Shown here: piece by piece, positions 3,990 to 42,835 of the stretch
Layout: each line of letters starts with the position of its first letter
Numbering within the stretch: the stretch's first letter is position 1
Assembly: GCA_944332535.1 (NCBI GenBank)
Contig: CALVKE010000025.1
Location: forward strand, 1-52,219
Length of the DNA: 52,219 nucleotides
Reading direction: 5' to 3'
From: an uncultured Bacilli bacterium
GTDB taxonomy: Bacteria > Bacillota_I > Bacilli_A > RF39 > UBA660
Program-made: the position numbers and the translations under genes
Notes under the pieces: generated by a model
Databases searched by the model: none
Told to the model about the DNA's origin: nothing
The model's input: the letters and a program-made list of their open reading frames with translations, nothing else

Positions 3990-4604
3990 ATGAAGACATA
4001 CTTTTTAAATCATTGTATATCTGCAGTAAAGGGTAACTTTCCAGAATACAGTGAGGAACAACTATTAGAAATTCGTTATGGAATCGAGAGTATCTATCTA
4101 TCCATTTCTAAAGTTGTCGTAATATTATTTATTACTTGGATCTTTGGATTCTTTCAAGAAGCGGTTATCTTACTTTTTCTATTTAATCTTTTAAGAATCC
4201 CGGGATTTGGACTTCACGCATCAAAAAGTTGGATGTGTTGGATCTCTTCTAGCATTACTTTTATCGGTGTTCCCCTATTATGCCAATGGATAGAAATTCC
4301 ACGAAGTCTAATGATTCCACTTTCTCTCTTTTGTATCTTGAACTTTTGGTTCTTTGCACCAGCTGATACAAAAAAGCGTCCATTAGTAAACAGAAAAAAA
4401 AGAATGATGTATAAATTAATAACGGTTACTGTCTCTATCATTTATACTTACTTCATTCTTACTACATCCAATGTCTTTTTACGAAATGCGTTATTTTGCG
4501 CTATGCTTATTGAATTGGTACTAATACATCCGGTGACTTATCGACTATTTAAATTACCTTATAATAACTATAAGTCATATGTATTTAGTAATAAATTAGG
4601 TTAG
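3990..4604 (+). CDS. agrB: AgrB-family accessory gene regulator protein B (AgrD-processing membrane peptidase)
   Basis: Multi-TM ORF resembling AgrB (..RIPGFGLHASKSWMCWISS..). The ATG at 3990 follows a GGAGGA RBS; the ORF-track start at 3975 is probably too long. Directly followed by an AgrD-like mini-ORF. Confidence 0.85.
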   Translation: MKTYFLNHCISAVKGNFPEYSEEQLLEIRYGIESIYLSISKVVVILFITWIFGFFQEAVILLFLFNLLRIPGFGLHASKSWMCWISSSITFIGVPLLCQWIEIPRSLMIPLSLFCILNFWFFAPADTKKRPLVNRKKRMMYKLITVTVSIIYTYFILTTSNVFLRNALFCAMLIELVLIHPVTYRLFKLPYNNYKSYVFSNKLG

Positions 4605-4623
4605 TGAATAGGAGGAGGAATTT

Positions 4624-4749
4624 ATGAAAAAATTATTCGCTATGGCAATTGCCGCTGTTGGTACTTTGGCTGCTGGAGCAGCTAGTATGGGATGTCTTTT
4701 AATGATTCTAGATGAACCAGAAGCTCCAAAATCAATTATCGAAAAATAG
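4624..4749 (+). CDS. agrD: AgrD-like autoinducing peptide precursor (41 aa, not in ORF track)
   Basis: Own translation: MKKLFAMAIAAVGTLAAGAASMGCLLMILDEPEAPKSIIEK. It has an amphipathic N-terminus, a single Cys, and the acidic DExExPK tail typical of AgrD. AGGAGGAGGA RBS just upstream; lies 19 nt after agrB. Confidence 0.78.
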   Translation: MKKLFAMAIAAVGTLAAGAASMGCLLMILDEPEAPKSIIEK

Positions 4750-4796: not shown

Positions 4797-6092
4797 TGTA
4801 ATAATTAACTTTTGAATAAAATAACCATGTTCGATAATAGTATTAGATTCCAAGCAATCGTGTTCTTTTATTAACTTGTTCACAATATAGAGTCCTGTTC
4901 CTCTACCAGTTCCTTTGCTGGAATAGCCATAGGTATTAATCTTATTTAATTCTACTTCACCACTAAATGTATTGGCAATTTCTAAACAAATTTGATTTTT
5001 GTTAGTAGTATAAGCATTGATAGCAACCATTTTCTCTTCACTTAAAAGAGCAGCTTCCATAGCATTATCCAGATATACACCAACAATACTATAAATACTC
5101 TTCTTGACTTCGGAGGGTAATGCTTCTAAATTTATGTTTTTACAGTCTTTACTTATTACTACATTAGCATTTAATCCTTTGGATCTCATTTCCAAAATTT
5201 TATGATTCATAAAACTACGTAATCCCATAAAGCTGATGTTATTTAACTCGATTATCCATTGAGAAGTAATTCCTTTTCTTTCACTGATCAAGCTATCTAT
5301 ATATTCGTGTACATCTTTGTTCTTCTTACCAATCATTCCTTTAATAATGATTAATTGATTTTTGTATTCATGATTTAATACACTATAATCTTCTACTAAA
5401 GTAGCGTTAATTTCTGAAAACTTTGCTAAATCCTCATATTGTTTATTTACCTTTTCATATTTTATTCTTTCATATAGTGTAACAATTCCAATTATGCTAA
5501 TTGCTAATATCATTAAAATATTTACAATGAATTGACTATTTAAAACCCAATTATCAGAATCAACTCTAAAAAATAAAGTACCAATACATAGCAAGATAAC
5601 AATTGCTGTAATTAGTAAAAATGCTAGATTGTTATCTTCCATTTTAGATAAAATTTTTCTATAAAATACTTGAAACCGAAAAATTAAGAAATAATTGATT
5701 ATCATAATAATGGCATTCAAAGCAACAGTATTTTTTATCGAGGTGGTTAAGTCAGAAGAAATAAAGTAAAACAATAAACTTAAAAACAAACCTGTTAGAC
5801 ATTCTGCTATTAAAGCGCTAATATATTCAATAAATGATATTGCCATACATTTACTTATAAAATCTTTTGTAATCAATTTATTTAATAATATCAAATCAAT
5901 AAATACAAATATTACCTTTAAGAAATTTTGCATCATATTGTAAGTTAGAGTTAAAATAAATGCGTTTATCAAGATTATCAAAAATTCAAATTTTCCTATT
6001 TTTATTTTCTTTGATTGCAAGATTTCTGTCGATTTTATCATTACTAATCCAATGACAATTCCGCTCACAATATTTTGAAATAAATCTAACAT
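4785..6092 (-). CDS. AgrC-like membrane sensor histidine kinase (GHKL ATPase)
   Basis: 435-aa ORF; the N-terminal half is multi-TM, the C-terminal half has an N-box (LDNAMEAA) and a G-box (GTGRGTGLYIV); overlaps the downstream LytTR regulator gene. Confidence 0.85.
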   Translation of the reverse strand: MLDLFQNIVSGIVIGLVMIKSTEILQSKKIKIGKFEFLIILINAFILTLTYNMMQNFLKVIFVFIDLILLNKLITKDFISKCMAISFIEYISALIAECLTGLFLSLLFYFISSDLTTSIKNTVALNAIIMIINYFLIFRFQVFYRKILSKMEDNNLAFLLITAIVILLCIGTLFFRVDSDNWVLNSQFIVNILMILAISIIGIVTLYERIKYEKVNKQYEDLAKFSEINATLVEDYSVLNHEYKNQLIIIKGMIGKKNKDVHEYIDSLISERKGITSQWIIELNNISFMGLRSFMNHKILEMRSKGLNANVVISKDCKNINLEALPSEVKKSIYSIVGVYLDNAMEAALLSEEKMVAINAYTTNKNQICLEIANTFSGEVELNKINTYGYSSKGTGRGTGLYIVNKLIKEHDCLESNTIIEHGYFIQKLIITQKK

Positions 6093-9071: not shown

Positions 9072-9323
9072 CTAGGAAAGGTTCAAGTATTTTCTTTTCG
9101 TTGATTCCCCTCCTCTAATATGACGTACTTCTATATGTTCCTTGAATATTTCAGCAATTAATTGATGTTTTTCCTTGTCCAATTCTAGTAATCTTTCTTT
9201 TAAATCTTTATGTACGGTACTTTTGGAAACACCGTTTAATTTGGCAATTTCGCGAATTGTCTTCTTTGTTTCTAGAATCTGATCGGCTTCTAAGAAGATT
9301 CTTTCAATCATGTATTTGTCCAT
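9072..9323 (-). CDS. spoIIID: Sporulation transcription regulator SpoIIID
   Basis: 83-aa ORF with an HTH (TIREIAKLNGVSKSTVHKDL) and the conserved C-terminal basic region; sits upstream of mreB/mbl. Confidence 0.9.
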   Translation of the reverse strand: MDKYMIERIFLEADQILETKKTIREIAKLNGVSKSTVHKDLKERLLELDKEKHQLIAEIFKEHIEVRHIRGGESTKRKYLNLS

Positions 9324-9387
9324 GGTTCCCTTCCTTCTACTTTATTCTAATTAAGTATATAGTGAAAGTTTGGGAATTATGAACAAT

Positions 9388-10017
9388 TTATTCTAGTTCG
9401 CCTAATTTTTTATCAAAATAATTTTCTGGATCTTTGATCTGTCCTTTAACCATTAATTCAAAGTGGAGATGGTTATTCAAGGTTGGGTTTAGAGCAGATG
9501 TTCCACTTTTTCCGATAATTTGTCCTTGACTAACTTGTTCACCTTTTTCTACGTTTACTTCACTTAAACTTTGATAAACACTGATAATATCATTATCATG
9601 TCGAATTGTCACAACATTTCCTAAAAGTTCTTCTTTCTTTACTTCGATTACTTCTCCATCTAGGATTGTTTGGACATCAAAAGTTTCCTCCGCAACATAG
9701 TCTACGCCAGAGTTTTGCATGTAAGTGTTTTCATAGTATATGATAGAGTTTGCTTGATTGGTTGCATCGTCTTCATAACTATAAAAATCTTTTCCGATCG
9801 TTACTTTATCAGAAGAATAAGGACGCATAATGATCGTATCTAGATTTACTACTGGAACATAACTATCTAAGATACTTCCAGATACGTATACCGTATCATC
9901 TTCTTTCGTTCCAACTAACGTCTTTCTTGCTAAAAATACCGTTATTAATAGTATTCCTACAAAAAGAGTATAAACTGCTGGCAGAACAAATGGTTTTAAC
10001 TTTAATCTCCTTTTCAT
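9388..10017 (-). CDS. M23/LytM-domain membrane protein, SpoIIQ-like by context
   Basis: 209-aa ORF with an N-terminal TM and a C-terminal LytM fold (GQIIGKSG, HLHFEL); directly upstream of spoIIID, as spoIIQ is in clostridial genomes. Confidence 0.65.
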   Translation of the reverse strand: MKRRLKLKPFVLPAVYTLFVGILLITVFLARKTLVGTKEDDTVYVSGSILDSYVPVVNLDTIIMRPYSSDKVTIGKDFYSYEDDATNQANSIIYYENTYMQNSGVDYVAEETFDVQTILDGEVIEVKKEELLGNVVTIRHDNDIISVYQSLSEVNVEKGEQVSQGQIIGKSGTSALNPTLNNHLHFELMVKGQIKDPENYFDKKLGELE

Positions 10018-22438: not shown

Positions 22439-23329
22439 TTAATGATTGGAAGCTCCAATAATTTCTAAGATTCGATTTAGATCATTGTTGTTTTCAAAGG
22501 AAATAACGATTTTTTTGTTTTTTATTTTTACTTTTGTTCCTAATCGATCAAAAAGAGATTCTTCTATATATTTATATTCATTATTTCTAGGTACTTTTTG
22601 AAGAGGATTACGTTTTCTAAAATCTCCTTTGGTAACAATGTCTTCGACTTCTCTGACACTTAAATGTTCGTTTACGATACGATTAGCTAAGGTTAATACT
22701 TTTTCGTCGTCTTCAATTTTACTTAGAATTCTAGCGTGTCCCATGGAAATTTGATCTTTCATGACAAATGTTTTCACTAGTTCTGGCAAAGATAAAAGTC
22801 CTATTGTATTCGTAATGTGAGTACGACTTTTTCCAAGTCGACGTCCTAGTTCTTCTTGCGTTAAGCAAAGCGTATCGAGTAATTTACGATAAGCTTCGGC
22901 TTCTTCTAAAGGATTGAGGTTTTCTCTTTGTAAGTTTTCCAAAAGGGCAATTTCCATCATTTGGGCATCGCTAAAATCACGAACAACGGCAGGAATAGTT
23001 GTTTTTCCGGCAAGTTGAGAAGCTTTTACCCGTCGTTCTCCGGCAATGATATCGTATCCTTTAATGCTTTTCTTTACAATAATAGGTTGGAATACTCCAT
23101 AATTTTTGATAGATTCTGCTAATTCTTCTAGTTTTTCTTGATCAAAGACTTGCCGTGGTTGATAAGGGTTCGCCCGAAGGGATGAAATCTCTACCTCTAT
23201 AATTGCATCCTTTGGAGCTTGTTCGATAATTTTTTCTTCTACTTTTTCATAGTCGATTGGCTCATTGTTAAACAATTCTTCTAGTCCACGTCCAAGAGCT
23301 CTTCTTTTATTGTTGTCCATTTCTTGCAA
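22439..23329 (-). CDS. parB: Chromosome partitioning protein ParB/Spo0J (parS-type recognition helix)
   Basis: 296-aa ORF with the GERR CTP-binding box (IIAGERRVKA); HTH region GKSRTHITNTIGLLSL...SMGHAR carries ParB-type residues (R, T, G) at the positions reported to separate parS from NBS recognition. Confidence 0.93.
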   Translation of the reverse strand: MQEMDNNKRRALGRGLEELFNNEPIDYEKVEEKIIEQAPKDAIIEVEISSLRANPYQPRQVFDQEKLEELAESIKNYGVFQPIIVKKSIKGYDIIAGERRVKASQLAGKTTIPAVVRDFSDAQMMEIALLENLQRENLNPLEEAEAYRKLLDTLCLTQEELGRRLGKSRTHITNTIGLLSLPELVKTFVMKDQISMGHARILSKIEDDEKVLTLANRIVNEHLSVREVEDIVTKGDFRKRNPLQKVPRNNEYKYIEESLFDRLGTKVKIKNKKIVISFENNNDLNRILEIIGASNH

Positions 23330-24095
23330 TCACTTCCTTTGCTAAATTAATATAAGCTTCCGATCCACGACTTTTGGGATCATAAGCTAATATCGGTTTT
23401 CCATGACTTGGTGCTTCCGTTAAACGAATTAATCTTGGAATAATCGTATCATACACTCTTTCTTTAAAGTAACGGCGAATATCTTCTACTACTTCTAGTC
23501 CTAAGTTCGTTCTAGAATCTAACATGGTAAGAAGTACTCCTTCAATATCCAAATTAGGATTCAAGTTTTTCTGTGCTAACATGATGGTATTTAACAATTG
23601 CATAATTCCTTCCAGTGCAAAAAATTCGCATTGTACCGGAATAATTACAGAATCCGATGCAGTTAGGGCATTGGTCGTAATCAAGCCTAGCGATGGGGGA
23701 CAATCAATAATCATAAAATCAAAGGTGTTTTTCAATTTTTCGATCGCATTTTTTAGCTGGGATCCTTTCGAAAAATTTTCTTCCGTCTTACTTTTTTCAA
23801 TCAACTCGATATCTACTCCTGCTAAATTAATCGTTGCTGGTAGCACATATAAATTACGATATCTCGTCTTTACAATAGCTTCTTCTACCGGACATTTTCC
23901 AGTAATCACATCATAAACACTCTTATCGATATCTCCTTTATTAATTCCAACTCCCGTCGTCGTATTTCCCTGAGGGTCTAAGTCAATCAATAACACTCTT
24001 TTTCCAAGATATGCTAAAGACGCAGAAAGATTAATGCTGGTCGTTGTTTTTCCTACTCCGCCTTTTTGATTAACTAATGAAATAATCTTCCCCAT
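23307..24095 (-). CDS. parA: Chromosome partitioning ATPase ParA/Soj
   Basis: Deviant Walker A KGGVGKTT; the ATG at 24095 follows an AAGGTG RBS (the ORF-track GTG at 24104 is also possible). Confidence 0.95.
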   Translation of the reverse strand: MGKIISLVNQKGGVGKTTTSINLSASLAYLGKRVLLIDLDPQGNTTTGVGINKGDIDKSVYDVITGKCPVEEAIVKTRYRNLYVLPATINLAGVDIELIEKSKTEENFSKGSQLKNAIEKLKNTFDFMIIDCPPSLGLITTNALTASDSVIIPVQCEFFALEGIMQLLNTIMLAQKNLNPNLDIEGVLLTMLDSRTNLGLEVVEDIRRYFKERVYDTIIPRLIRLTEAPSHGKPILAYDPKSRGSEAYINLAKEVIARNGQQ

Positions 24096-24189
24096 CTTCT
24101 TCACCTTTTCCTTATAAATCGTTCTTTTTTTATTGTATCAAAATTTTTCTTCTTTTGAAATGACTTTTGTCAAAAAAAAGTAGAAAGTT

Positions 24190-25209
24190 CTACTTTTCCA
24201 GATCTTCTTTATTAATATTAATAATAATTTGGTATTTTCCGCCCATGTCAGTTTCTTCTACTGAAACTTGCATTCCTTTATGTCTAAGTTCTGGAATTAC
24301 ATCTCTTACTAAATTAATAGCGTCTTTTAACTTAAAAGATTCTACAAAATTTGCATCTTTTAGCGAATTGTTGTTAGAATTTGTATTCGTTGGCTGCAAT
24401 AATTCATCCTCTTCTTGGATCATCACCGGACTTGCTGGAGGAGTAAAGGTCGAGAAAGAACTTTCCGTTTTTGGTGGATTCATTCCCGGTTTTGTTTCTT
24501 CGAACGATTCTTTTTCGGAATGAAACTCTATTGGATTTTTTAAAAGGTCTTCTAATTTTGGTGCATTCGACTCTTTCTCTATCATATTTTCTTCCATAGA
24601 AATGTTCGCTGTAGGACTCATTTCTTTAATGGCATGATCTAATTCTCTTACTGTCATTCTTCCACGAATAACGCGGTTTAACATTTCTACTTGCTCATTG
24701 GGATTTTCAATTGCCAATAAACTACGCGCGTGACGTTCTGAAATTTGATCATTTAATAAGGCTTCTTGTACTTCATCTGTTAACGAAAGTAATCTTAATT
24801 TATTGGCGATGGCCGCTTGACTTTTTCCCATCGTTTTCCCTAATTCTTCTTGGGTCATAGAGTCTAACTCTAATATTTTTTGATATGTTCTCGCTTCTTC
24901 AATAGCCGTTAAATCTTTTCTTTGCAGATTTTCTAACAGTGCGACTTTACTTGCTTCTTTATCATCCAAGTTCCGAATAATCGCAGGAATTTTCGTAAGA
25001 CCTGCCAAAGCAGAAGCTTTATATCGTCTCTCTCCGGCAATAATTTCAAACTTTTCTCCAATTTTTCTGACAATAATCGGCTGGATTACCCCATGTTCTT
25101 TGATCGAAGTTGCTAACTCTTTGAGTGCCGTTTCGTCAAATTTTTCTCTTGGTTGAAAACGATTTGGTATAATATCATCTAAATATAGCTCTACTACTTC
25201 ATTTTGCAT
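24190..25209 (-). CDS. noc: Noc-type ParB paralog (NBS-type recognition helix), atypical N- and C-terminal architecture
   Basis: 339-aa ORF in the rsmG-noc-parA-parB position. It has PNRFQPR and GERR boxes. The HTH GKSQAAIANKLRLLSL...ISERHAR carries Noc-type Q, K and R at specificity positions. It has no N-terminal extension and carries a low-complexity insert of roughly 100 aa. Confidence 0.85.
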   Translation of the reverse strand: MQNEVVELYLDDIIPNRFQPREKFDETALKELATSIKEHGVIQPIIVRKIGEKFEIIAGERRYKASALAGLTKIPAIIRNLDDKEASKVALLENLQRKDLTAIEEARTYQKILELDSMTQEELGKTMGKSQAAIANKLRLLSLTDEVQEALLNDQISERHARSLLAIENPNEQVEMLNRVIRGRMTVRELDHAIKEMSPTANISMEENMIEKESNAPKLEDLLKNPIEFHSEKESFEETKPGMNPPKTESSFSTFTPPASPVMIQEEDELLQPTNTNSNNNSLKDANFVESFKLKDAINLVRDVIPELRHKGMQVSVEETDMGGKYQIIININKEDLEK

Positions 25210-25286
25210 AGTATCCCTCTTTTCATCCTTTTATCCTTATATACATTATAACATAGTTTTCTTCAAACACAAGAAAAAAAGAAAAA

Positions 25287-25991
25287 TTATGCCCTATCTT
25301 TCTTTATCTTATCCATTGTTCTTGGATAATTAGAAGGACTTTCTTTTTCTTTCTTGATAACGATAATTTGTCTTTTACTTTCTTCATAAGGAAGAAGAAA
25401 TTGTTCTATTTTATCTATTTTAGCATTCAGTTTTTTTAAAATTTCTTGGCTTTCTTGGACTTCTTCCTCGGCACTTGCTTTCATGGCAAGAAACAATCCT
25501 CCAACCTTTACCATCGGAACCGTTATTTCTGCTAATACTTTTAAGCTGGCAACAGCACGAGCCGTAACAATGGAAAATTTTTCGCGGTTTTCTCTTGCAT
25601 AATCTTCACTTCTTGCATGAATTGCTTCAATATCGGATAAATGAAGCTCTTCGATGACTTTATTTAAATATCGCACTCGTTTCTGCAACGCATCCAATAA
25701 CGTTATTTTCAAGTGAGGAAAGACAATTTTTAATACAATTCCTGGAAACCCCGCACCACTTCCTACATCGCACAAGGTCCACTCTTGATTCAAATCTACT
25801 ACTTTAGCAAGGGTTAAACTATCATAAAAATGCTTTAAATAAACATCTTTTTTGTCTGTGATTCTCGTTAAATTCATATACTGATTCGTCTCTATTAAAA
25901 TCTCATAGAACTGATTTAACTGTTTCAACTGCCCCTCAGATAAAGTAATTCCTAATTTTGATACTTCTTCTATAAATTGTTGTTCTGTCAT
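25287..25991 (-). CDS. rsmG: 16S rRNA (guanine527-N7)-methyltransferase
   Basis: 234-aa ORF with the SAM motif DVGSGAGFPG; mnmG-rsmG synteny. Confidence 0.95.
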   Translation of the reverse strand: MTEQQFIEEVSKLGITLSEGQLKQLNQFYEILIETNQYMNLTRITDKKDVYLKHFYDSLTLAKVVDLNQEWTLCDVGSGAGFPGIVLKIVFPHLKITLLDALQKRVRYLNKVIEELHLSDIEAIHARSEDYARENREKFSIVTARAVASLKVLAEITVPMVKVGGLFLAMKASAEEEVQESQEILKKLNAKIDKIEQFLLPYEESKRQIIVIKKEKESPSNYPRTMDKIKKDRA

Positions 25992-31649: not shown

Positions 31650-31705
31650 GTTTTAAGTTACAATAAGAAGCAGTCGAATATAAAAAACGAGGGGGAGGAG
31701 TGAAG

Positions 31706-33052
31706 ATGAATGAAAAAATTATCTGGTCTAATTTTTTAAATCTCATCAAGAATGAAGTTACATCTTTATCTTTCGAAACCTGGTTTAAAGATACAGAGCT
31801 TCACGAAATCAAAGAGAATAGGGCAGTAATCGTTGTACCGATGCCCATTCACAAAAAGCATCTATCAGATAAATACATGGATTTAATTAAAGAAACCTTA
31901 AAAAGCATTGATGGCGTCGATTATGAAATTTCCTTTTTATTAAAAGATGAATTAATGCAAGAAGAGAAGAAAGACTTGGCACCTCCAATGGAACCAGTAC
32001 ACTTCTCCTCTAATTTAAAAAGTAACTACACGTTTGATACATTTATTGTAGGAAATAGTAACAAGTTTGCTCATGCGGCGGCCTTATCCGTTGCCGAAAA
32101 TCCTGGTAGAATGTACAATCCACTTTTTATTTATGGAAATAGTGGACTAGGAAAAACGCATTTAATGCACGCAATTGGAAACCATATTGTCAAAACAAGT
32201 AATAAAAAAGTACTATATGTTACAAGTGAACAGTTTATTTCCGACTTTTTAGGAATTAACAAAAAAGATGAGTTTGGAAATAACTTTAATTATGTGGAAT
32301 ACTTTAAAAATAAATATCGAACAGTTGATGTCTTAATTATTGATGATATCCAATTTTTAGGAGGGGCAACCCAAACACAACAAGAATTTTTTCATACGTT
32401 TAATACTTTATATAGTGATAATAAACAAATTATTATTTCATCCGATCGTTCCCCAGATGATTTGAAATTATTAGAGGATCGACTTCGGACTAGGTTTTGT
32501 TGGGGTCTTACCGTGGATATTTTTCCACCAGATTTTGAACTGCGGATTGCTATTTTAAAGAAAAAGATAGTAGGGGGAGCAGTGGAAAAAAATATACCAG
32601 AAGATGTCATTGAATACATTGCATCCAATATGGGAAGCGATGTTAGACAACTAGAAGGTTCCATTACCCGGCTACTTGCTTATTCTACCATTATGGGTGG
32701 AAGCGAAATTACCTTGGATCTTGCCATTGAAGCTTTAAAAGATTACGTAAATAAAGGAATTAGTGAAAAAGATAATCTTCATAAGATTCAAAAAGTAGTA
32801 GCCGAATTTTTCCAAGTAACCGTAGAAGATTTAAAAAGTAAGAAAAGAAGTTCTAATTTGACTTTTCCGAGACAAGTCGCAATGTATTTGTGTAGAACGT
32901 TAACGGGAGAATCCTTTCCTAAAATAGGAACAGAATTTGGTGGAAAAGATCATTCTACAGTAATGCATTCTTGTGATAAAATTGAAAGAGAGATCAAATC
33001 TAATAAAGAACTTGCAAATATTGTCGAAAAAATAAAGAGTAATATCACTTGA
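31706..33052 (+). CDS. dnaA: Chromosomal replication initiator DnaA
   Basis: AAA+ motifs (GNSGLGKTHL, IDDIQF) and the domain IV DnaA signature; the ATG at 31706 lies 7 nt after GGAGG (the ORF-track GTG at 31700 is less likely). Confidence 0.97.
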   Translation: MNEKIIWSNFLNLIKNEVTSLSFETWFKDTELHEIKENRAVIVVPMPIHKKHLSDKYMDLIKETLKSIDGVDYEISFLLKDELMQEEKKDLAPPMEPVHFSSNLKSNYTFDTFIVGNSNKFAHAAALSVAENPGRMYNPLFIYGNSGLGKTHLMHAIGNHIVKTSNKKVLYVTSEQFISDFLGINKKDEFGNNFNYVEYFKNKYRTVDVLIIDDIQFLGGATQTQQEFFHTFNTLYSDNKQIIISSDRSPDDLKLLEDRLRTRFCWGLTVDIFPPDFELRIAILKKKIVGGAVEKNIPEDVIEYIASNMGSDVRQLEGSITRLLAYSTIMGGSEITLDLAIEALKDYVNKGISEKDNLHKIQKVVAEFFQVTVEDLKSKKRSSNLTFPRQVAMYLCRTLTGESFPKIGTEFGGKDHSTVMHSCDKIEREIKSNKELANIVEKIKSNIT

Positions 33053-34325: not shown

Positions 34326-34347
34326 AAGTGGATTTTCCACTTTTTTT
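34324..34347 (+). terminator. dnaN terminator
   Basis: Hairpin AGTGG-ATTTT-CCACT followed by T7. Confidence 0.55.
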
Positions 34348-34438
34348 GTGCAAAATTTTCTTTTTTCGACAGAAATCGAACAAAATCGACATATCTTTCT
34401 GGTATAATCTATCTCCATCAAAGAAAGAGGGGAGTCTT

Positions 34439-34882
34439 TTGGAATACGTTATTACAGAAGAGACGCTTGCGGTGATTAGCTGTGGATTGAAAGATACTAG
34501 AATTATTGAAAAAGAGAGGGATTTTCATATTTGTTGTTCTTGGAAAAAAATTTTAAATGATAGTTGTCTTTATTACGGAGCTAGTTTTCAAGGGAGATTA
34601 GAGGGTAGTAAATATTTATTAGAAAAGGGATATAAAATTCCTATTGTAGTAAGTGAGGGAAAAGATTTAATTTTTATACCATTAATGAGTGGAGAAGATT
34701 GTCACGGTATTTGGATTTCTTTTCATAATGTTATAAAATATGCTGGTAATCAAGACGAAACAACGGTTTATTTTTCTCATGACAAAAGGATTTGTGTCCC
34801 TGTTAGTAACTATATTTTTGACAGTCAATTTTTAAAAGCTTATAAATTGGAAAGAATGATTCATTTTATCCACAAAAATTAA
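34439..34882 (+). CDS. ComK-family protein (competence transcription factor-like)
   Basis: By eye the region LNDSCLYYGASFQGRLEGSKYLL..KIPIVVSEGKDLIFIPLMS..HGIWISFHNV aligns with B. subtilis ComK (VDRSCRFFGSSYAGRKAGTYEV..KPPIMVDPSNQIFLFPTLS..CGWISHVHV). Likely TTG start at 34439 behind an AAAGAGGGGAG RBS and a TGgTATAAT extended -10 at 34400-34408; the first 37 ORF-track codons span the dnaN terminator. Confidence 0.65.
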   Translation: MEYVITEETLAVISCGLKDTRIIEKERDFHICCSWKKILNDSCLYYGASFQGRLEGSKYLLEKGYKIPIVVSEGKDLIFIPLMSGEDCHGIWISFHNVIKYAGNQDETTVYFSHDKRICVPVSNYIFDSQFLKAYKLERMIHFIHKN

Positions 34883-40508: not shown

Positions 40509-40528
40509 AATGCATGCCTCTTTTTTTT
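40497..40528 (+). terminator. gyrA terminator
   Basis: Hairpin GAGGATGCAT-AAA-ATGCATGCCTC followed by T8. Confidence 0.7.
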
Positions 40529-40580
40529 GTGGATAAAAATATATTGGTTAAATAATACTCTGTGGAAATTTTAAATTTAT

Positions 40581-40604
40581 ACAATGTTTCACGTGAAACA
40601 TTGT
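40581..40604. repeat. Unit 1: solo parS, 24-bp perfect palindrome ACAATGTTTCACGTGAAACATTGT
   Basis: Core TGTTTCACGTGAAACA matches the parS consensus; no CCCGGG palindrome follows. Confidence 0.85.
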
Positions 40605-40774
40605 TATTTTTTTATCTTTTTTTATTTGTAAAAACTTTTATATAGATTAATTTGTTATGTTTTAATAATGAATTAATATATGTATGATAATGATTTATTT
40701 ATATAAAAATATAAAATAATTTGGTAATTGGAGATAGATAGCTTACATTGTTTTTTATAAAATAGTAAATATTT

Positions 40775-40846
40775 TTGCACATGTTTCACGTGAAACATTG
40801 TCAATTTGTGAATAAAAAAACATAAATTATTTCCCGGGAAATAATT
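40775..40846 (+). repeat. Unit 2: parS (40781-40798) + NBS (40825-40846)
   Basis: TTGCAC-ATGTTTCACGTGAAACAT-TGTCAATTTGTGAAT..-AATTATTTCCCGGGAAATAATT; centre-to-centre 46 bp. Confidence 0.88.
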
Positions 40847-41120
40847 TGGTTAGCAAGTATTTCATTTATTATAAAAAAATTAATATAAAATTTTATACAA
40901 GTATGTTAGGTGCTTTACTATTATATAATTTATATCAGTTAAATAGCTTTTACTTATTATCGGAACTTTATATTTTTAAAATGTCTCATGATAAGTATTT
41001 AAATAAAATAGTAAATTTATTTCCCAGAAATGAAATTTATTTAATTATAAAGGAAAAAATAAAACTAAAAATTAAGGATAATTAGAAATAATAATTTAAT
41101 TTAGTATGGATTAACATTTT

Positions 41121-41190
41121 TTGCACATGTTTCACGTGAAACATTGTTATTTTGTGAATTAAAAGTAAAAATTATTTCCCGGGAAATAAT
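41121..41190 (+). repeat. Unit 3: parS (41127-41144) + NBS (41170-41190)
   Basis: Both palindromes perfect; centre-to-centre 45 bp. Confidence 0.88.
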
Positions 41191-41304
41191 CTTCTTCTTA
41201 AAAAAATATAATTTATAATAGAAATAATAAAATATTAAGGAAGTTATATAAATAGTATTAAAAAAATAGATATACTATTTATATTCAGATAAATTTAATA
41301 TTTT

Positions 41305-41374
41305 TTACACATGTTTCACGTGAAACATTGTCAGTTTGTGGATTAAAAGTGAATTTATTTCCCGGGAAATAATT
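41305..41374 (+). repeat. Unit 4: parS (41311-41328) + NBS (41355-41372)
   Basis: Both cores perfect; 5' flank TTACAC instead of TTGCAC; centre-to-centre 44 bp. Confidence 0.88.
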
Positions 41375-41661
41375 TTTTAAAACTTTTTCATTTTATTTTA
41401 CTACAATAATTATTTATTATATAAGATTAATACAAAGTTAATATAACATATGATGATAGATGATTTTATATTATATAAATTTATATTTGGAAAATATATC
41501 TTATGATGAAGTAATAAAAAATTGTTAGAAAGCACTATATGCAAAATAATAATAATAATAACTTTTTAAAATAAGATTTTTATTTATTATAAAAAATATT
41601 ATTTTAATTATAGATATTAAGATGAACAAAAATATATTTTAATTAGTATGAACTAATATTT

Positions 41662-41732
41662 TTGCACATGTTTCACGTGAAACATTGTCAATTTGTGAAT
41701 TAAAGATATAAATTATTTCCCGGGAAATAATT
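41662..41732 (+). repeat. Unit 5: parS (41668-41685) + NBS (41711-41732)
   Basis: Both palindromes perfect; centre-to-centre 45 bp. Confidence 0.88.
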
Positions 41733-41915
41733 TGCATAATCTTTTTATATTAATTTTTAATATTTACAATGTTTTTTTGTTTTCCTATATAAGGAATTAA
41801 GTTTATATATAATAATATAAATAGAAATTTTATTTTTTTGTAGATTTTCATTTTTTAATATATAGTAGTAAAGATCGTATCAGTAGAATACTAGATAAGT
41901 AATCAAGAAAAAATT

Positions 41916-41987
41916 TTGCACATGTTTCACGTGAAACATTGCTATTTTTGAAATTAAAAAAAGAAAATTATTTCCCGGGAAATAATT
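41916..41987 (+). repeat. Unit 6: parS (41922-41939) + NBS (41966-41987)
   Basis: Both palindromes perfect; centre-to-centre 46 bp. Confidence 0.88.
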
Positions 41988-42163
41988 TAATACAATTTTA
42001 ATATTTGCTATTTCAAATGAATAATTGAAAATAGAAATCTATATGGGTAAGTTATTAAACTCTATTTATATAGGTGAATGATATTTAAAAAAATTCTTTT
42101 TAAATAAATATTTTGTATTAGTATGAAACTTATTAAAAATATTATTTATTATTATAAAAAAAT

Positions 42164-42235
42164 TTGCACATGTTTCACTTGAAACATTGTCATTTTTGAA
42201 ATTAAAAAAAGAAAATTATTTCCCGGGAAATAATT
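42164..42235 (+). repeat. Unit 7: degenerate parS (42170-42187, G->T at 42179) + NBS (42214-42235)
   Basis: ATGTTTCACTTGAAACAT has one central mismatch; the NBS is perfect; centre-to-centre 46 bp. Confidence 0.85.
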
Positions 42236-42338
42236 TTTATTGAGTTCGCACCCAAAGGTATAACTTTTTTTAAATAAAAATAGATATATTAAAGATTATA
42301 GGATAAACTTTTAAAGTTTAGATAAATCTATAGTTTTT

Positions 42339-42410
42339 TTGCACATGTTTCACGTGAAACATTGTCGTTTTTAAAATTAAAAAAGTAAAATTATTTCCCG
42401 GGAAATAATT
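42339..42410 (+). repeat. Unit 8: parS (42345-42362) + NBS (42389-42410)
   Basis: Both palindromes perfect; centre-to-centre 46 bp. Confidence 0.88.
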
Positions 42411-42588
42411 TTAAATATCTTTTCTTAGAATTTAGTATGGAGATAGTCTATTTGTTAAAGTAAATATAAACTCTATTTAATCATAAAAGACTTTATATTA
42501 TTTTATATTCATATTAGACTTAATTTTCTTTATAAAAGCCATAATAGAAAATTTGTTTATGTCTAAAATTGGTTTAACTCTAAAAAAT

Positions 42589-42659
42589 TTGTATATGTTT
42601 CACGTGAAACATTGTTAATTTGTGAATAAAAAATAAAAATTATTTCCCGGGAAATAATT
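42589..42659 (+). repeat. Unit 9: parS (42595-42612) + NBS (42638-42659)
   Basis: Both palindromes perfect; 5' flank TTGTAT; centre-to-centre 45 bp. Confidence 0.88.
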
Positions 42660-42705
42660 TAGTGAAATTATAATTTTATTTATTTAAAAAAATATAAAGG
42701 TAGGC

Positions 42706-42734
42706 TTGCAATTATTAGAAGAATATTGTATTAT
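42706..42734 (+). promoter_or_regulatory. Candidate sigma-A promoter of the SRP RNA
   Basis: TTGCAA (42706-42711), 17 nt, TATTAT (42729-42734); predicted +1 near G42741. Confidence 0.5.
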
Positions 42735-42740
42735 TAATAC

Positions 42741-42816
42741 GTGCAATAAATGCGGTGGAACCAGGTCAGGATCGGAAGATAGCATCCTTAACACTTTGCA
42801 TTTATGTGCACTTTTT
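42741..42816 (+). ncRNA. ffs: Signal recognition particle RNA, short (4.5S-like) form
   Basis: Closing stem GTGCAATAAATGC...GCATTTATGTGCAC around the conserved domain IV core CCAGGTCAGGATCGGAAGATAGCATCC (GGAA tetraloop), then a T run. Upstream DNA is unstructured and AT-rich, so no Alu domain. Confidence 0.75.
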
Positions 42817-42835
42817 ATTTTGGTGGTGATTTTAG

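Follow-up and report, generated by a model that had tools for sequence, protein, structure and literature searches.

Noc is the textbook nucleoid-occlusion factor of Gram-positive bacteria: it recruits DNA to the membrane in a CTP-dependent way and inhibits division over the nucleoid. Central to its mechanism is an N-terminal helix (aa 1-10/15) whose membrane binding is switched by CTP and which is reported to be essential and highly conserved. S. aureus Noc, which reportedly controls replication initiation, is a precedent for an origin-tied Noc function beyond division-site selection. We know of no parS/NBS composite arrays described for S. aureus Noc, which presumably keeps the N-terminal helix, unlike the protein described here. 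An N-terminal amphipathic motif was found in all Noc homologues examined and was needed for function (Adams 2015). The NocNdelta10 variant kept nucleoid binding but lost membrane foci and function, and no protein partner of Noc was found in the same study (Adams 2015).

Here we describe a noc-type gene whose product, referred to below as the short-N protein, starts without this helix. The gene lies in a window of 52,219 nucleotides, the whole stretch of DNA that was analysed, and its host is a gut bacterium of the class Bacilli, uncultured and AT-rich, whose lineage looks RF39-like. The features are as follows.

24190..25209 (-): noc-type ParB paralogue, 339 aa, a short-N, long-linker Noc variant (ORF list, Pfam ParB_N and HTH_ParB, TIGR04285, PDB, tree)
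24922..25200 (-): N-terminal ParB_N domain, predicted CTP-binding, residues 4-96, with PNRFQPR, GERRYKA and ENLQR boxes and no membrane-targeting helix before it (Pfam PF02195, E 2e-35)
24619..24918 (-): HTH DNA-binding domain, residues 98-197, in which Q131, K137, S142 and R159 correspond to positions 173/179/184/201 (Pfam PF17762)
24346..24618 (-): acidic low-complexity linker, residues about 198-288, predicted disordered (composition, conservation, pLDDT)
24193..24345 (-): Noc-type C-terminal dimerisation-like domain, one helix and a beta hairpin (AF2 pLDDT, TIGR04285)
25214..25221 (-): Shine-Dalgarno-like AAGAGGGA, 5 nt before the noc-type ATG (read directly from the sequence)
25231-25233 (-): in-frame TAA stop upstream of the noc-type ATG (in-frame translation ...G*KDEKRDT-M)
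25287..25991 (-): rsmG (gidB), the gene upstream by which the canonical noc position is recognised (ORF list; the syntenic gene of relatives has the GidB Pfam domain)
23307..24104 (-): parA/soj (ORF list; the syntenic gene of relatives belongs to ParA-type Pfam families)
22439..23329 (-): parB/spo0J; specificity residues are R,T,S,G, the N-terminus carries the motif KRRALGRGLEELF, and ParB_C is present (Pfam, PDB, residues)
40585..42655 (no strand): parS/NBS array of 9 parS (TGTTTCACGTGAAACA; a single mismatch in one of them) plus 8 perfect NBS (ATTTCCCGGGAAAT, 16 bp), between gyrA and the SRP RNA (pattern searches and shuffles)

The gene has the same rsmG-noc-soj-spo0J position as noc of B. 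subtilis and Geobacillus thermoleovorans (structures 7ol9, 7nfu, 7ng0 and 6y93), and its product is 47-52% identical to these two proteins over 192 aa. It shares with them the ParB_N + HTH + CTD architecture, the CTP-pocket boxes, the Noc-type CTD and Q173/K179/R201, and the source genome contains the identical NBS core. In contrast to them, it is without helix alpha1, alpha2 and the loop (~25 residues), has S in place of K at position 184, and joins the DBD to the CTD by ~90 aa of acidic linker rather than by about 10-25 aa of basic linker. In the DNA available, NBS form a cluster next to parS, whereas those of canonical Noc are scattered over the chromosome arms and missing around the terminus. 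The crystal construct NocNdelta26 (Jalal 2021) has an N-terminus that coincides with the natural short-N start. However, NocNdelta10 and NocNdelta26 are laboratory loss-of-function alleles for nucleoid occlusion, whereas in a very large lineage the short-N form is itself the wild type and is conserved, and its truncation, unlike theirs, is coupled to an expanded linker.

Chromosomal ParB/Spo0J (for example 6sdk of B. subtilis) shares with the short-N protein the predicted CTP-dependent clamp fold, origin-proximal sites and a gene next to parA. It differs in carrying R/G instead of Q/R at 173/201, in its N-terminal ParA-contacting peptide and in a CTD of ParB_C type rather than Noc type; the gene for a genuine ParB lies two genes from the noc-type one.

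Assignment of the 24190-25209 product to Noc

The N-terminus of the 24190-25209(-) ORF reads MQNEVVELYLDDIIPNRFQPR in the ORF list. The gene occupies the canonical rsmG-noc-parA-parB position both here and, by synteny, in relatives. An ORI cluster that includes noc has been inferred for the Firmicutes ancestor (PMC8136486). The ORF has the ParB-family architecture of ParB_N, HTH and C-terminal dimerisation domain. Its CTP-pocket residues G59, E60, R61, R62, N94, L95, Q96 and R97 and the PNRFQPR box were invariant across 48 homologues. The AF2 model of the N-domain was of low confidence and was kept out of inference.

To place the protein within this family, it was compared with known structures and profiles. 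The best PDB matches were Noc 7ng0/7nfu/7ol9, with 202/179 bits for Noc and 170 for Spo0J. The neighbouring ParB gave the reciprocal pattern, matching B. subtilis Spo0J 6sdk best at 213 bits and Noc at 165 bits. The TIGR04285 score pair of 286 versus 232 bits also counted towards a Noc-type protein. The native score (286.1 bits) is below the curated NCBIfam cut-off of 315, unlike that of canonical Noc, and deleting the linker in silico raised it only to 288.5 bits. In a neighbour-joining tree whose canonical Noc sample was two sequences only, the Noc clade had a bootstrap of 197/200 and the short-N family was sister to Bacillus and Geobacillus Noc. The C-terminal domain was modelled by AF2 at pLDDT 81-91 (helix 294-310, strands 315-322 and 325-332). 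Searched alone, it matched TIGR04285 best among NCBIfam models (positions 212-255, E 0.0014), and Pfam ParB_C matched the neighbouring ParB but not the short-N protein. The DBD model superposed on the Noc DBD-NBS complex 6y93 with a TM of 0.89 and an rmsd of 1.1-1.5 Å. Since the PDB, NCBIfam, tree, C-terminal, fold and synteny comparisons concur, the product is confirmed, at the level of sequence, as Noc-type and not ParB-type.

The N-terminus and the acidic linker

The N-terminus of B. subtilis Noc, MKHSFSRFFGLG..., was confirmed against PDB 7ol9. In the alignment, residue 3-4 of the short-N protein falls opposite residue 27-28 of Noc from B. subtilis and Geobacillus, and so ~24-25 N-terminal residues are absent and the protein starts at about Noc residue 26. 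In the NocNdelta26 crystal construct (7ng0), the residue opposite is residue 3. A protein that starts where NocNdelta26 starts has no amphipathic helix alpha1 (10 aa), no alpha2 and no loop. In-frame translation places the stop at the 8th codon upstream of the ATG, and none of the 7 intervening codons is ATG, GTG or TTG. The preliminary description had stated both that the start could not lie further upstream and that about 25 residues with the amphipathic helix are missing, and the translation and the alignment to Noc structures agree with it. It had treated the short N-terminus as a feature of this one protein. The short form is real, but it belongs to a lineage-wide subfamily rather than being a single-genome peculiarity: all 120 closest homologues and all 150 best cluster representatives at 50% identity are short-N, and the subfamily comprises at least 150 such clusters. 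Human and animal gut metagenomes are rich in members of this subfamily; homologue searches and a cluster look-up for cultured carriers returned only MAG labels such as Tenericutes, Mycoplasmatota and Bacilli bacterium. We found no prior description of an anchor-less Noc or of parS/NBS arrays in the open-access literature.

We searched the family for a cationic amphipathic element. An N-terminal cationic amphipathic 10-mer was found in 0 of 397 family members, at thresholds that detected both canonical Noc controls. A hydrophobic-moment scan of the whole protein revealed no substitute cationic amphipathic segment, all high-moment cationic windows being inside folded domains. Weakly cationic amphipathic 10-mers occur in the linker of 19% of the family, with a charge of +1 and no conservation, and the amphipathic windows in the family's tails are only the beta-strand sequence of the CTD. 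Membrane binding is thus predicted to be absent from the short-N protein.

The linker (residues 196-288) contains 16% E, 12% S, 12% N and 11% P and has a net charge of -11. It is poorly conserved, and its AF2 pLDDT is mostly below 57. The B. subtilis Noc linker is ~9 aa by the same measurement, and linkers across the family span 0-545 aa and are net negative in 99%. A long low-complexity insert had been noted from the sequence earlier; this holds, with the amendment that the insert is acidic in particular and that its length varies greatly. No short linear motif is universal in the linkers, the top reduced-alphabet 6-mers being present in at most 16 of 155 representatives. Linkers of family members carry clade-specific conserved hydrophobic/acidic motifs. 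Two of these, KPFSFADRLM and RFISDF, were considered as relocated anchors and rejected, being clade-specific, in an acidic context and absent from the 24190-25209 product.

Specificity residues and the parS/NBS array

The HTH region of the short-N protein (GKSQAAIANKLRLLSL...ISERHAR) has Q, K, S and R at positions 173/179/184/201, position 184 being S and not K. The neighbouring ParB has R, T, S and G at the same positions. A regular-expression search over the family found QK[S/A/T]R in 139 of 139 close homologues. For NBS preference, Q173 and R201 need only one lysine beside them, at either 179 or 184 (Jalal 2020, PMC7383237). The R173 and G201 residues and the N-terminal ParA-contacting peptide of chromosomal ParB are absent from the noc-type ORF and present in the 22439-23329 product. 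From these residues and from the CTP-pocket boxes we infer DNA specificity and CTP binding, respectively, and the short-N protein is a predicted NBS reader. Residue scoring bears out the proposal that three of the four specificity residues are Noc-type (Q, K, R) and that the R, T and G of the neighbouring protein are ParB-type. Taken with the parS and NBS sites, it also upholds the suggestion that both palindromes of the array would have their matching readers encoded in the window.

The array lies downstream of gyrA, ~7.5 kb from dnaA (31700-33052), within the dnaA-dnaN-recF-gyrBA block. Its counts of 9 parS and 8 NBS were reached in 0 of 100 shuffles, and the 8 perfect NBS compare with 0.4 expected, counting sites with up to 2 mismatches. 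Within this origin-proximal DNA, all 8 perfect NBS of the 52-kb window are inside the one ~2-kb array, each 44-46 bp from a parS, centre to centre. Tandem Repeats Finder misses the array because only modules of ~75 bp are conserved and the spacers are not.

Among uncultured gut Bacilli, the genomes of at least 120 species have similar parS/NBS composites, in 118 of 120 in the gyrA-tadA/dnaX interval. Both site types follow gyrA in 21 of the 24 informative metagenome loci with a short-N Noc; this co-occurrence was read from loci centred on dnaN, and no near-identical DNA overlap bridged the noc and array loci of relatives. Distances between parS and NBS are quantised at ~11 bp, whereas parS-parS distances are not, by a statistic partly corrected for shared ancestry. 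Single NBS outside arrays also occur in relatives.

Proposed function at the origin

On balance, and with slightly better than even confidence, we favour a reading of these sequence features in which the short-N protein would be an NBS-loading CTP clamp that works beside ParB at the origin and not a classical membrane tether. In the array that follows gyrA, dimers would nucleate on the NBS, which are interleaved with parS, and CTP binding would close them into sliding clamps. These clamps would gather on origin-proximal DNA also occupied by ParB clamps, giving a two-protein origin complex. Without the helix, the classical Noc route of DNA-membrane tethering would be closed to the short-N protein. 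The acidic linker, which carries clade-specific hydrophobic/acidic motifs, probably extends outwards from the complex; it may bring in a partner, or adjust where the ParB partition complex ends and what physical properties it has. Candidate outputs are origin organisation or segregation, control of replication initiation and membrane-independent control of division. The preliminary description had raised a non-tethering role shared with ParB, and this idea is strengthened by the universality of the short N-terminus, the gyrA-proximal co-occurrence in 21 of 24 loci and the ~11-bp quantisation.

Nucleoid occlusion is the best-surviving alternative, although we regard it as unlikely. The short-N Noc would still be an occlusion factor, contacting the membrane or divisome indirectly through a linker-bound partner or a cryptic membrane-binding segment, and the origin array would merely be the strongest of many NBS clusters. 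Orthology with Noc, the clade-specific conserved linker motifs and the single NBS outside arrays in relatives fit this alternative. Most RF39 species are predicted to be walled and so probably have a conventional divisome (PMC10868615), and B. subtilis Spo0J and Noc jointly affect Z-ring timing (PMC6852036). However, the family has no conserved cationic amphipathic element anywhere, and acidic linkers in 99% of its members disfavour binding to anionic membranes. A linker-bound partner also sits poorly with Adams 2015, where no Noc protein partner was found and function needed the helix, and many NBS clusters sit poorly with a window in which all 8 NBS are packed beside parS.

The location of the array, ~7.5 kb from dnaA in the dnaA-dnaN-recF-gyrBA block, and the precedent of S. 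aureus Noc suggest a different role, in which the short-N Noc would coat origin-proximal DNA and thereby chiefly control replication initiation or origin firing, its proximity to parS being incidental. We consider this rather improbable. The array follows gyrA and is not in the oriC intergenic regions that flank dnaA, and the helical quantisation between NBS and parS argues that proximity to ParB sites was itself selected.

More improbable still is that the short-N Noc is a second centromere-binding protein, with the NBS serving as a second centromere moved by ParA or with dual parS/NBS specificity. The noc-type gene adjoins parA, NBS are interleaved with parS, and the protein has the ParB-family clamp architecture. 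Nevertheless, it has no N-terminal LG(R/K)GL-type peptide, unlike the neighbouring ParB (KRRALGRGLEELF), and this peptide is the ParB contact to ParA (Adams 2015). The last alternative, that the start is mis-called or the gene is truncated or decaying into a pseudogene, has nothing in its favour except the unusual N-terminus length and can be set aside given the upstream stop, the Shine-Dalgarno-like sequence, the same short N-terminus in hundreds of independent assemblies, the very high conservation of residues 1-195 and the invariant catalytic boxes.

The clamp working beside ParB can be extended, tentatively and with appreciably less confidence, to a compound centromere of two clamps, phased stereospecifically, that a large clade of gut Bacilli would have. 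It would be formed jointly by ParB and the anchor-less Noc, each NBS being at a fixed helical offset from a parS, and Noc would act through its acidic linker as an origin-domain organiser, a boundary element or a partner-recruiting scaffold. If this is true, the defining activity of Noc would not be nucleoid occlusion with membrane tethering, which would instead have been elaborated in particular lineages or been lost here. A helix-less subfamily that keeps the NBS-reading residues, the CTP pocket and the NBS sites suggests that Noc has a conserved, membrane-independent job as a clamp, and the interleaved, helically phased arrays point to joint work with ParB at the origin. This opens the questions of how a single stretch of DNA accommodates two paralogous CTP clamps, what role Noc has before, or without, membrane binding, and what disordered linkers contribute to partition complexes. 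It also flags a systematic annotation gap for short-N Noc-type proteins. In current records, short-N proteins are mostly annotated as generic ParB/RepB/Spo0J.

The noc gene and its lineage

The noc ORF, which encodes a Noc-type ParB paralogue, lies next to parA and parB:

24190-25209, minus strand: noc ORF, 339 aa, starting MQNEVVELYLDDIIPNRFQPR
23307-24104, minus strand: parA, directly after the noc ORF in gene order
22439-23329, minus strand: parB, after parA in gene order

The minus-strand order is yidC, jag, mnmE, mnmG, rsmG, noc ORF, parA, parB, divergent from dnaA-dnaN-recF-gyrB-gyrA on the plus strand. The gene order around the noc ORF is that of the canonical Bacillota origin cluster, where noc occupies the place between rsmG and soj (PMC8136486), and this synteny is kept in relatives. 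As the preliminary description held, the ORF cannot extend N-terminally: the in-frame translation 5' of the ATG reads ...G*KDEKRDT-M, so that the nearest stop is eight codons upstream, and the seven codons in between include no ATG, GTG or TTG. The sequence AAGAGGGA lies 5 nt ahead of the ATG. The explanation that the ORF is an artefact was rejected.

Pfam detected ParB_N and HTH_ParB in the ORF. With the NCBIfam nucleoid_noc model TIGR04285 it scored 286 bits, below the curated cut-off of 315 bits, compared to 232 bits for the neighbouring ParB. Against PDB sequences, the ORF matched Geobacillus Noc best (202 bits), followed by B. subtilis Noc (179) and Spo0J (170); reciprocally, the neighbouring ParB scored 213 bits with Spo0J and 157-165 with Noc. 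The last 59 residues of the ORF alone had TIGR04285 positions 212-255 as their best NCBIfam match, and with its insert deleted in silico the protein aligned with TIGR04285 end to end. The DNA-binding domain of the AF2 model superimposed on the Noc-NBS co-crystal 6y93 with a TM of 0.89 (rmsd 1.1-1.5 Å) versus 0.76 (2.4 Å) for the ParB-parS complex 6s6h. A bootstrapped NJ tree over 195 columns grouped 21 family members with the two canonical Noc proteins at 197/200 support. From these comparisons, which included only two canonical Noc sequences, we conclude that the ORF is a member of the Noc lineage.

Some features of the surrounding region were also recorded. In the related loci L121 and L124 an HD-domain gene (9317-9898) lies between rsmG and noc; L139 had no noc match in the 2 kb past rsmG, perhaps owing to a comparable insertion. 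Between dnaN and recF, the window carries a 184-aa ORF (34328-34882, plus strand) whose syntenic counterpart in relatives matches Pfam ComK (PF06338). The site is an unusual one for a gene resembling a competence regulator; it is conserved throughout the lineage.

The short N-terminus and the acidic linker

The N-terminus of Noc comprises α1, a 10-aa membrane-targeting helix, followed by α2 and an 8-aa loop (Jalal 2021, PMC8429893). The B. subtilis Noc reference was checked residue by residue (1-242) against 7ol9, and the same search gave the Geobacillus Noc N-terminus as MKHPFSRLFSFGEKEQEE... Residue 3-4 of the ORF aligned with Noc residue 27-28 and with residue 3 of the engineered truncation NocNdelta26 (7ng0); the ORF therefore lacks α1, α2 and the loop. 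A hydrophobic-moment scan that recovered both canonical Noc helices found cationic amphipathic windows in the ORF inside folded domains only, and an N-terminal candidate in 0 of 397 family members. Both results bear out the proposed absence of an N-terminal membrane-targeting peptide. [quoted passage not shown]

The short N-terminus was shared widely. All of the best 120 homologues start M-x-x-E-V-V-E-L-Y-L-D-D-I-I-P-N-R-F-Q-P-R or a near variant. An exhaustive HMMER search covered 1.84 billion cluster representatives, and among the best 150 (245-798 aa) the PNRFQPR box was located in 147, preceded by 14-21 residues in all but four, which had 23-31; B. subtilis Noc has 39. The short N-terminus persisted down to 58-59% identity among these 150, and a second search, seeded with a divergent family member, agreed. 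The homologues are mostly annotated as ParB/RepB/Spo0J family, and source names, where given, are MAG labels (Tenericutes, Mycoplasmatota, Bacilli bacterium). RF39, to which record names would assign the window, and allied orders are described as reductively evolved, mostly walled Bacilli (PMC10868615). The anchor-less N-terminus is a lineage-wide subfamily trait.

The long low-complexity insert noted earlier is real. Residues 196-288 are rich in E/S/N/P, with a net charge of -11, low conservation and low pLDDT. The confidently predicted C-terminal domain that follows (one helix and a β hairpin) is assigned as Noc-type by its sequence. Over 289 family proteins the linker measured 0-545 aa (median 133; 221 among 50%-identity representatives) and was negatively charged in 99%, whereas that of B. 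subtilis Noc is ~9 residues and basic by the same measure. No universal linker motif was found in the family; clade-specific hydrophobic/acidic motifs were RFISDF...KPIIIEE, IPLPxPNPIExLE and DLDSLLNI...FITPAExIVK.

Recognition residues and the parS/NBS array

At specificity positions 173/179/184/201, numbered as in Caulobacter (Jalal 2020), the residues of the ORF are Q, K, S and R, confirming three of four Noc-type residues, and those of the neighbouring ParB are R, T, S and G. Q-K-[S/A/T]-R occurred in 139/139 close homologues, and 109 of the 150 best distant representatives matched the residue pattern, with Q-K-x-R in all but one (Q-K-S-K). Q173 reads adenine 1 and R201 cytosine 6 of NBS, and one lysine, at 179 or 184, is enough to license this reading (Jalal 2020, PMC7383237). 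Because a single lysine suffices in these published data, the three residues are predicted to be sufficient for NBS preference. The CTP pocket is intact in sequence: G59, E60, R61, R62, N94-R97 and the PNRFQPR box were invariant in 48 homologues. The R91 equivalent is K; R91A is tolerated in Noc (Adams 2015, PMC4331003).

The palindromes for both predicted readers were present, as anticipated, and all lay in one region:

40585-42655: parS/NBS array, non-coding, between gyrA and the SRP RNA; 9 parS (8 perfect) and 8 perfect NBS

No further NBS with ≤2 mismatches was found elsewhere in the 52-kb window. The array region (40510-42700) has 18% G+C versus 32% for the window. The two site types are interleaved, and each NBS lies 44-46 bp from a parS, centre to centre, inside a conserved ~75-bp module. 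Tandem Repeats Finder did not report the array because only these modules repeat, the AT-rich spacers of 100-290 bp being unique. Directly after the last NBS lies a small bacterial SRP RNA (Rfam RF00169, 52.8 bits; 42732-42823, plus strand), followed by a tadA-like ORF and dnaX.

Scanning GTDB species genomes for the exact pattern parS-N(15-45)-NBS returned at least 120 loci. The matches listed were almost all uncultured gut Bacilli or Tenericutes-labelled MAGs, among them Clostridium sp. CAG:710, CAG:1000, CAG:417 and Candidatus Onthousia; 118 of these 120 had the pattern near gyrA-tadA/dnaX, their GyrA sharing 45-83% identity with that of the window. Relatives also carry recurrent single perfect NBS at the junction of mnmE with mnmG, close to that of jag with mnmE, and in the tadA-dnaX region (L125-L134 and L195-L196 at ~4440-4640 and ~5970-6000; several loci at ~19.8-21 kb); the window has none at these positions.

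Of 80 metagenome loci taken around dnaN (10 kb on either side), 24 were informative in that they covered the N-terminus of noc and 300 bp or more beyond gyrA. The N-terminus was short in 24/24 (14-23 residues before the box), and 21/24 (11/13 by distinct N-termini) had one or more parS together with one or more perfect NBS after gyrA.

Centre-to-centre parS-NBS distances, pooled from ~200 loci (L001-L120, L125-L204) and dereplicated per locus (n=367), peaked near 26, 36, 47-48, 57 and 68-69 bp, with a Rayleigh nR2 of 26.9 at an 11-bp period. Clustering the pairs by spacer sequence (297 clusters), which controls shared ancestry only partly, gave 14.5; among 2000 null trials that each scanned every period, the highest value was 11.7. 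Distances between neighbouring parS showed no periodicity (nR2 ≤0.6), and parS-NBS spacer sequences were not conserved between clusters or across species. The conserved feature is the palindrome pair and its rotational relation, not the spacer sequence. With shared ancestry partly controlled, no other result points as strongly to a functional coupling of ParB-parS with Noc-NBS complexes.

Possible role and origin of the subfamily

The ORF belongs to a Noc subfamily that lacks the membrane anchor, has a long linker and is tied to parS/NBS arrays near the origin, and of which we found no earlier account in the open-access literature searched; the preliminary description is confirmed in what it observed and, as far as sequence analysis goes, supported in its interpretation. 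We infer that a predicted Noc-type clamp would nucleate at the array, close on CTP and accumulate, without direct membrane tethering, on origin-proximal DNA also occupied by ParB. The acidic linker may supply partner recruitment or physical tuning. Rival roles are indirect nucleoid occlusion and, as in S. aureus, the control of replication initiation. The reading as a second centromere in the strict sense is disfavoured because the protein lacks a ParA-contacting peptide.

In the NJ tree, the short-N family, natural homologues beginning near Noc residue ~26 without the helix, was monophyletic in 191/200 replicates and sister to Bacillus plus Geobacillus Noc. Loss of the helix and its never having been gained are indistinguishable on the present outgroups; deletion in the lineage would be more parsimonious since ParB itself carries an N-terminal extension.

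Two database homologues were anomalous. P0220 (221 aa, on a truncated contig) combines the ParB-type N-terminus KRRALGRGLEELF, with NPYQPRK, and a Noc-type DNA-binding region (GKSQ...NK); it arose either by natural recombination or as an assembly chimera of the two neighbouring paralogues. P0280 ends in ...CLLYTSDAADE, which resembles translated sequencing-adaptor sequence, and is probably an artefactually terminated contig.
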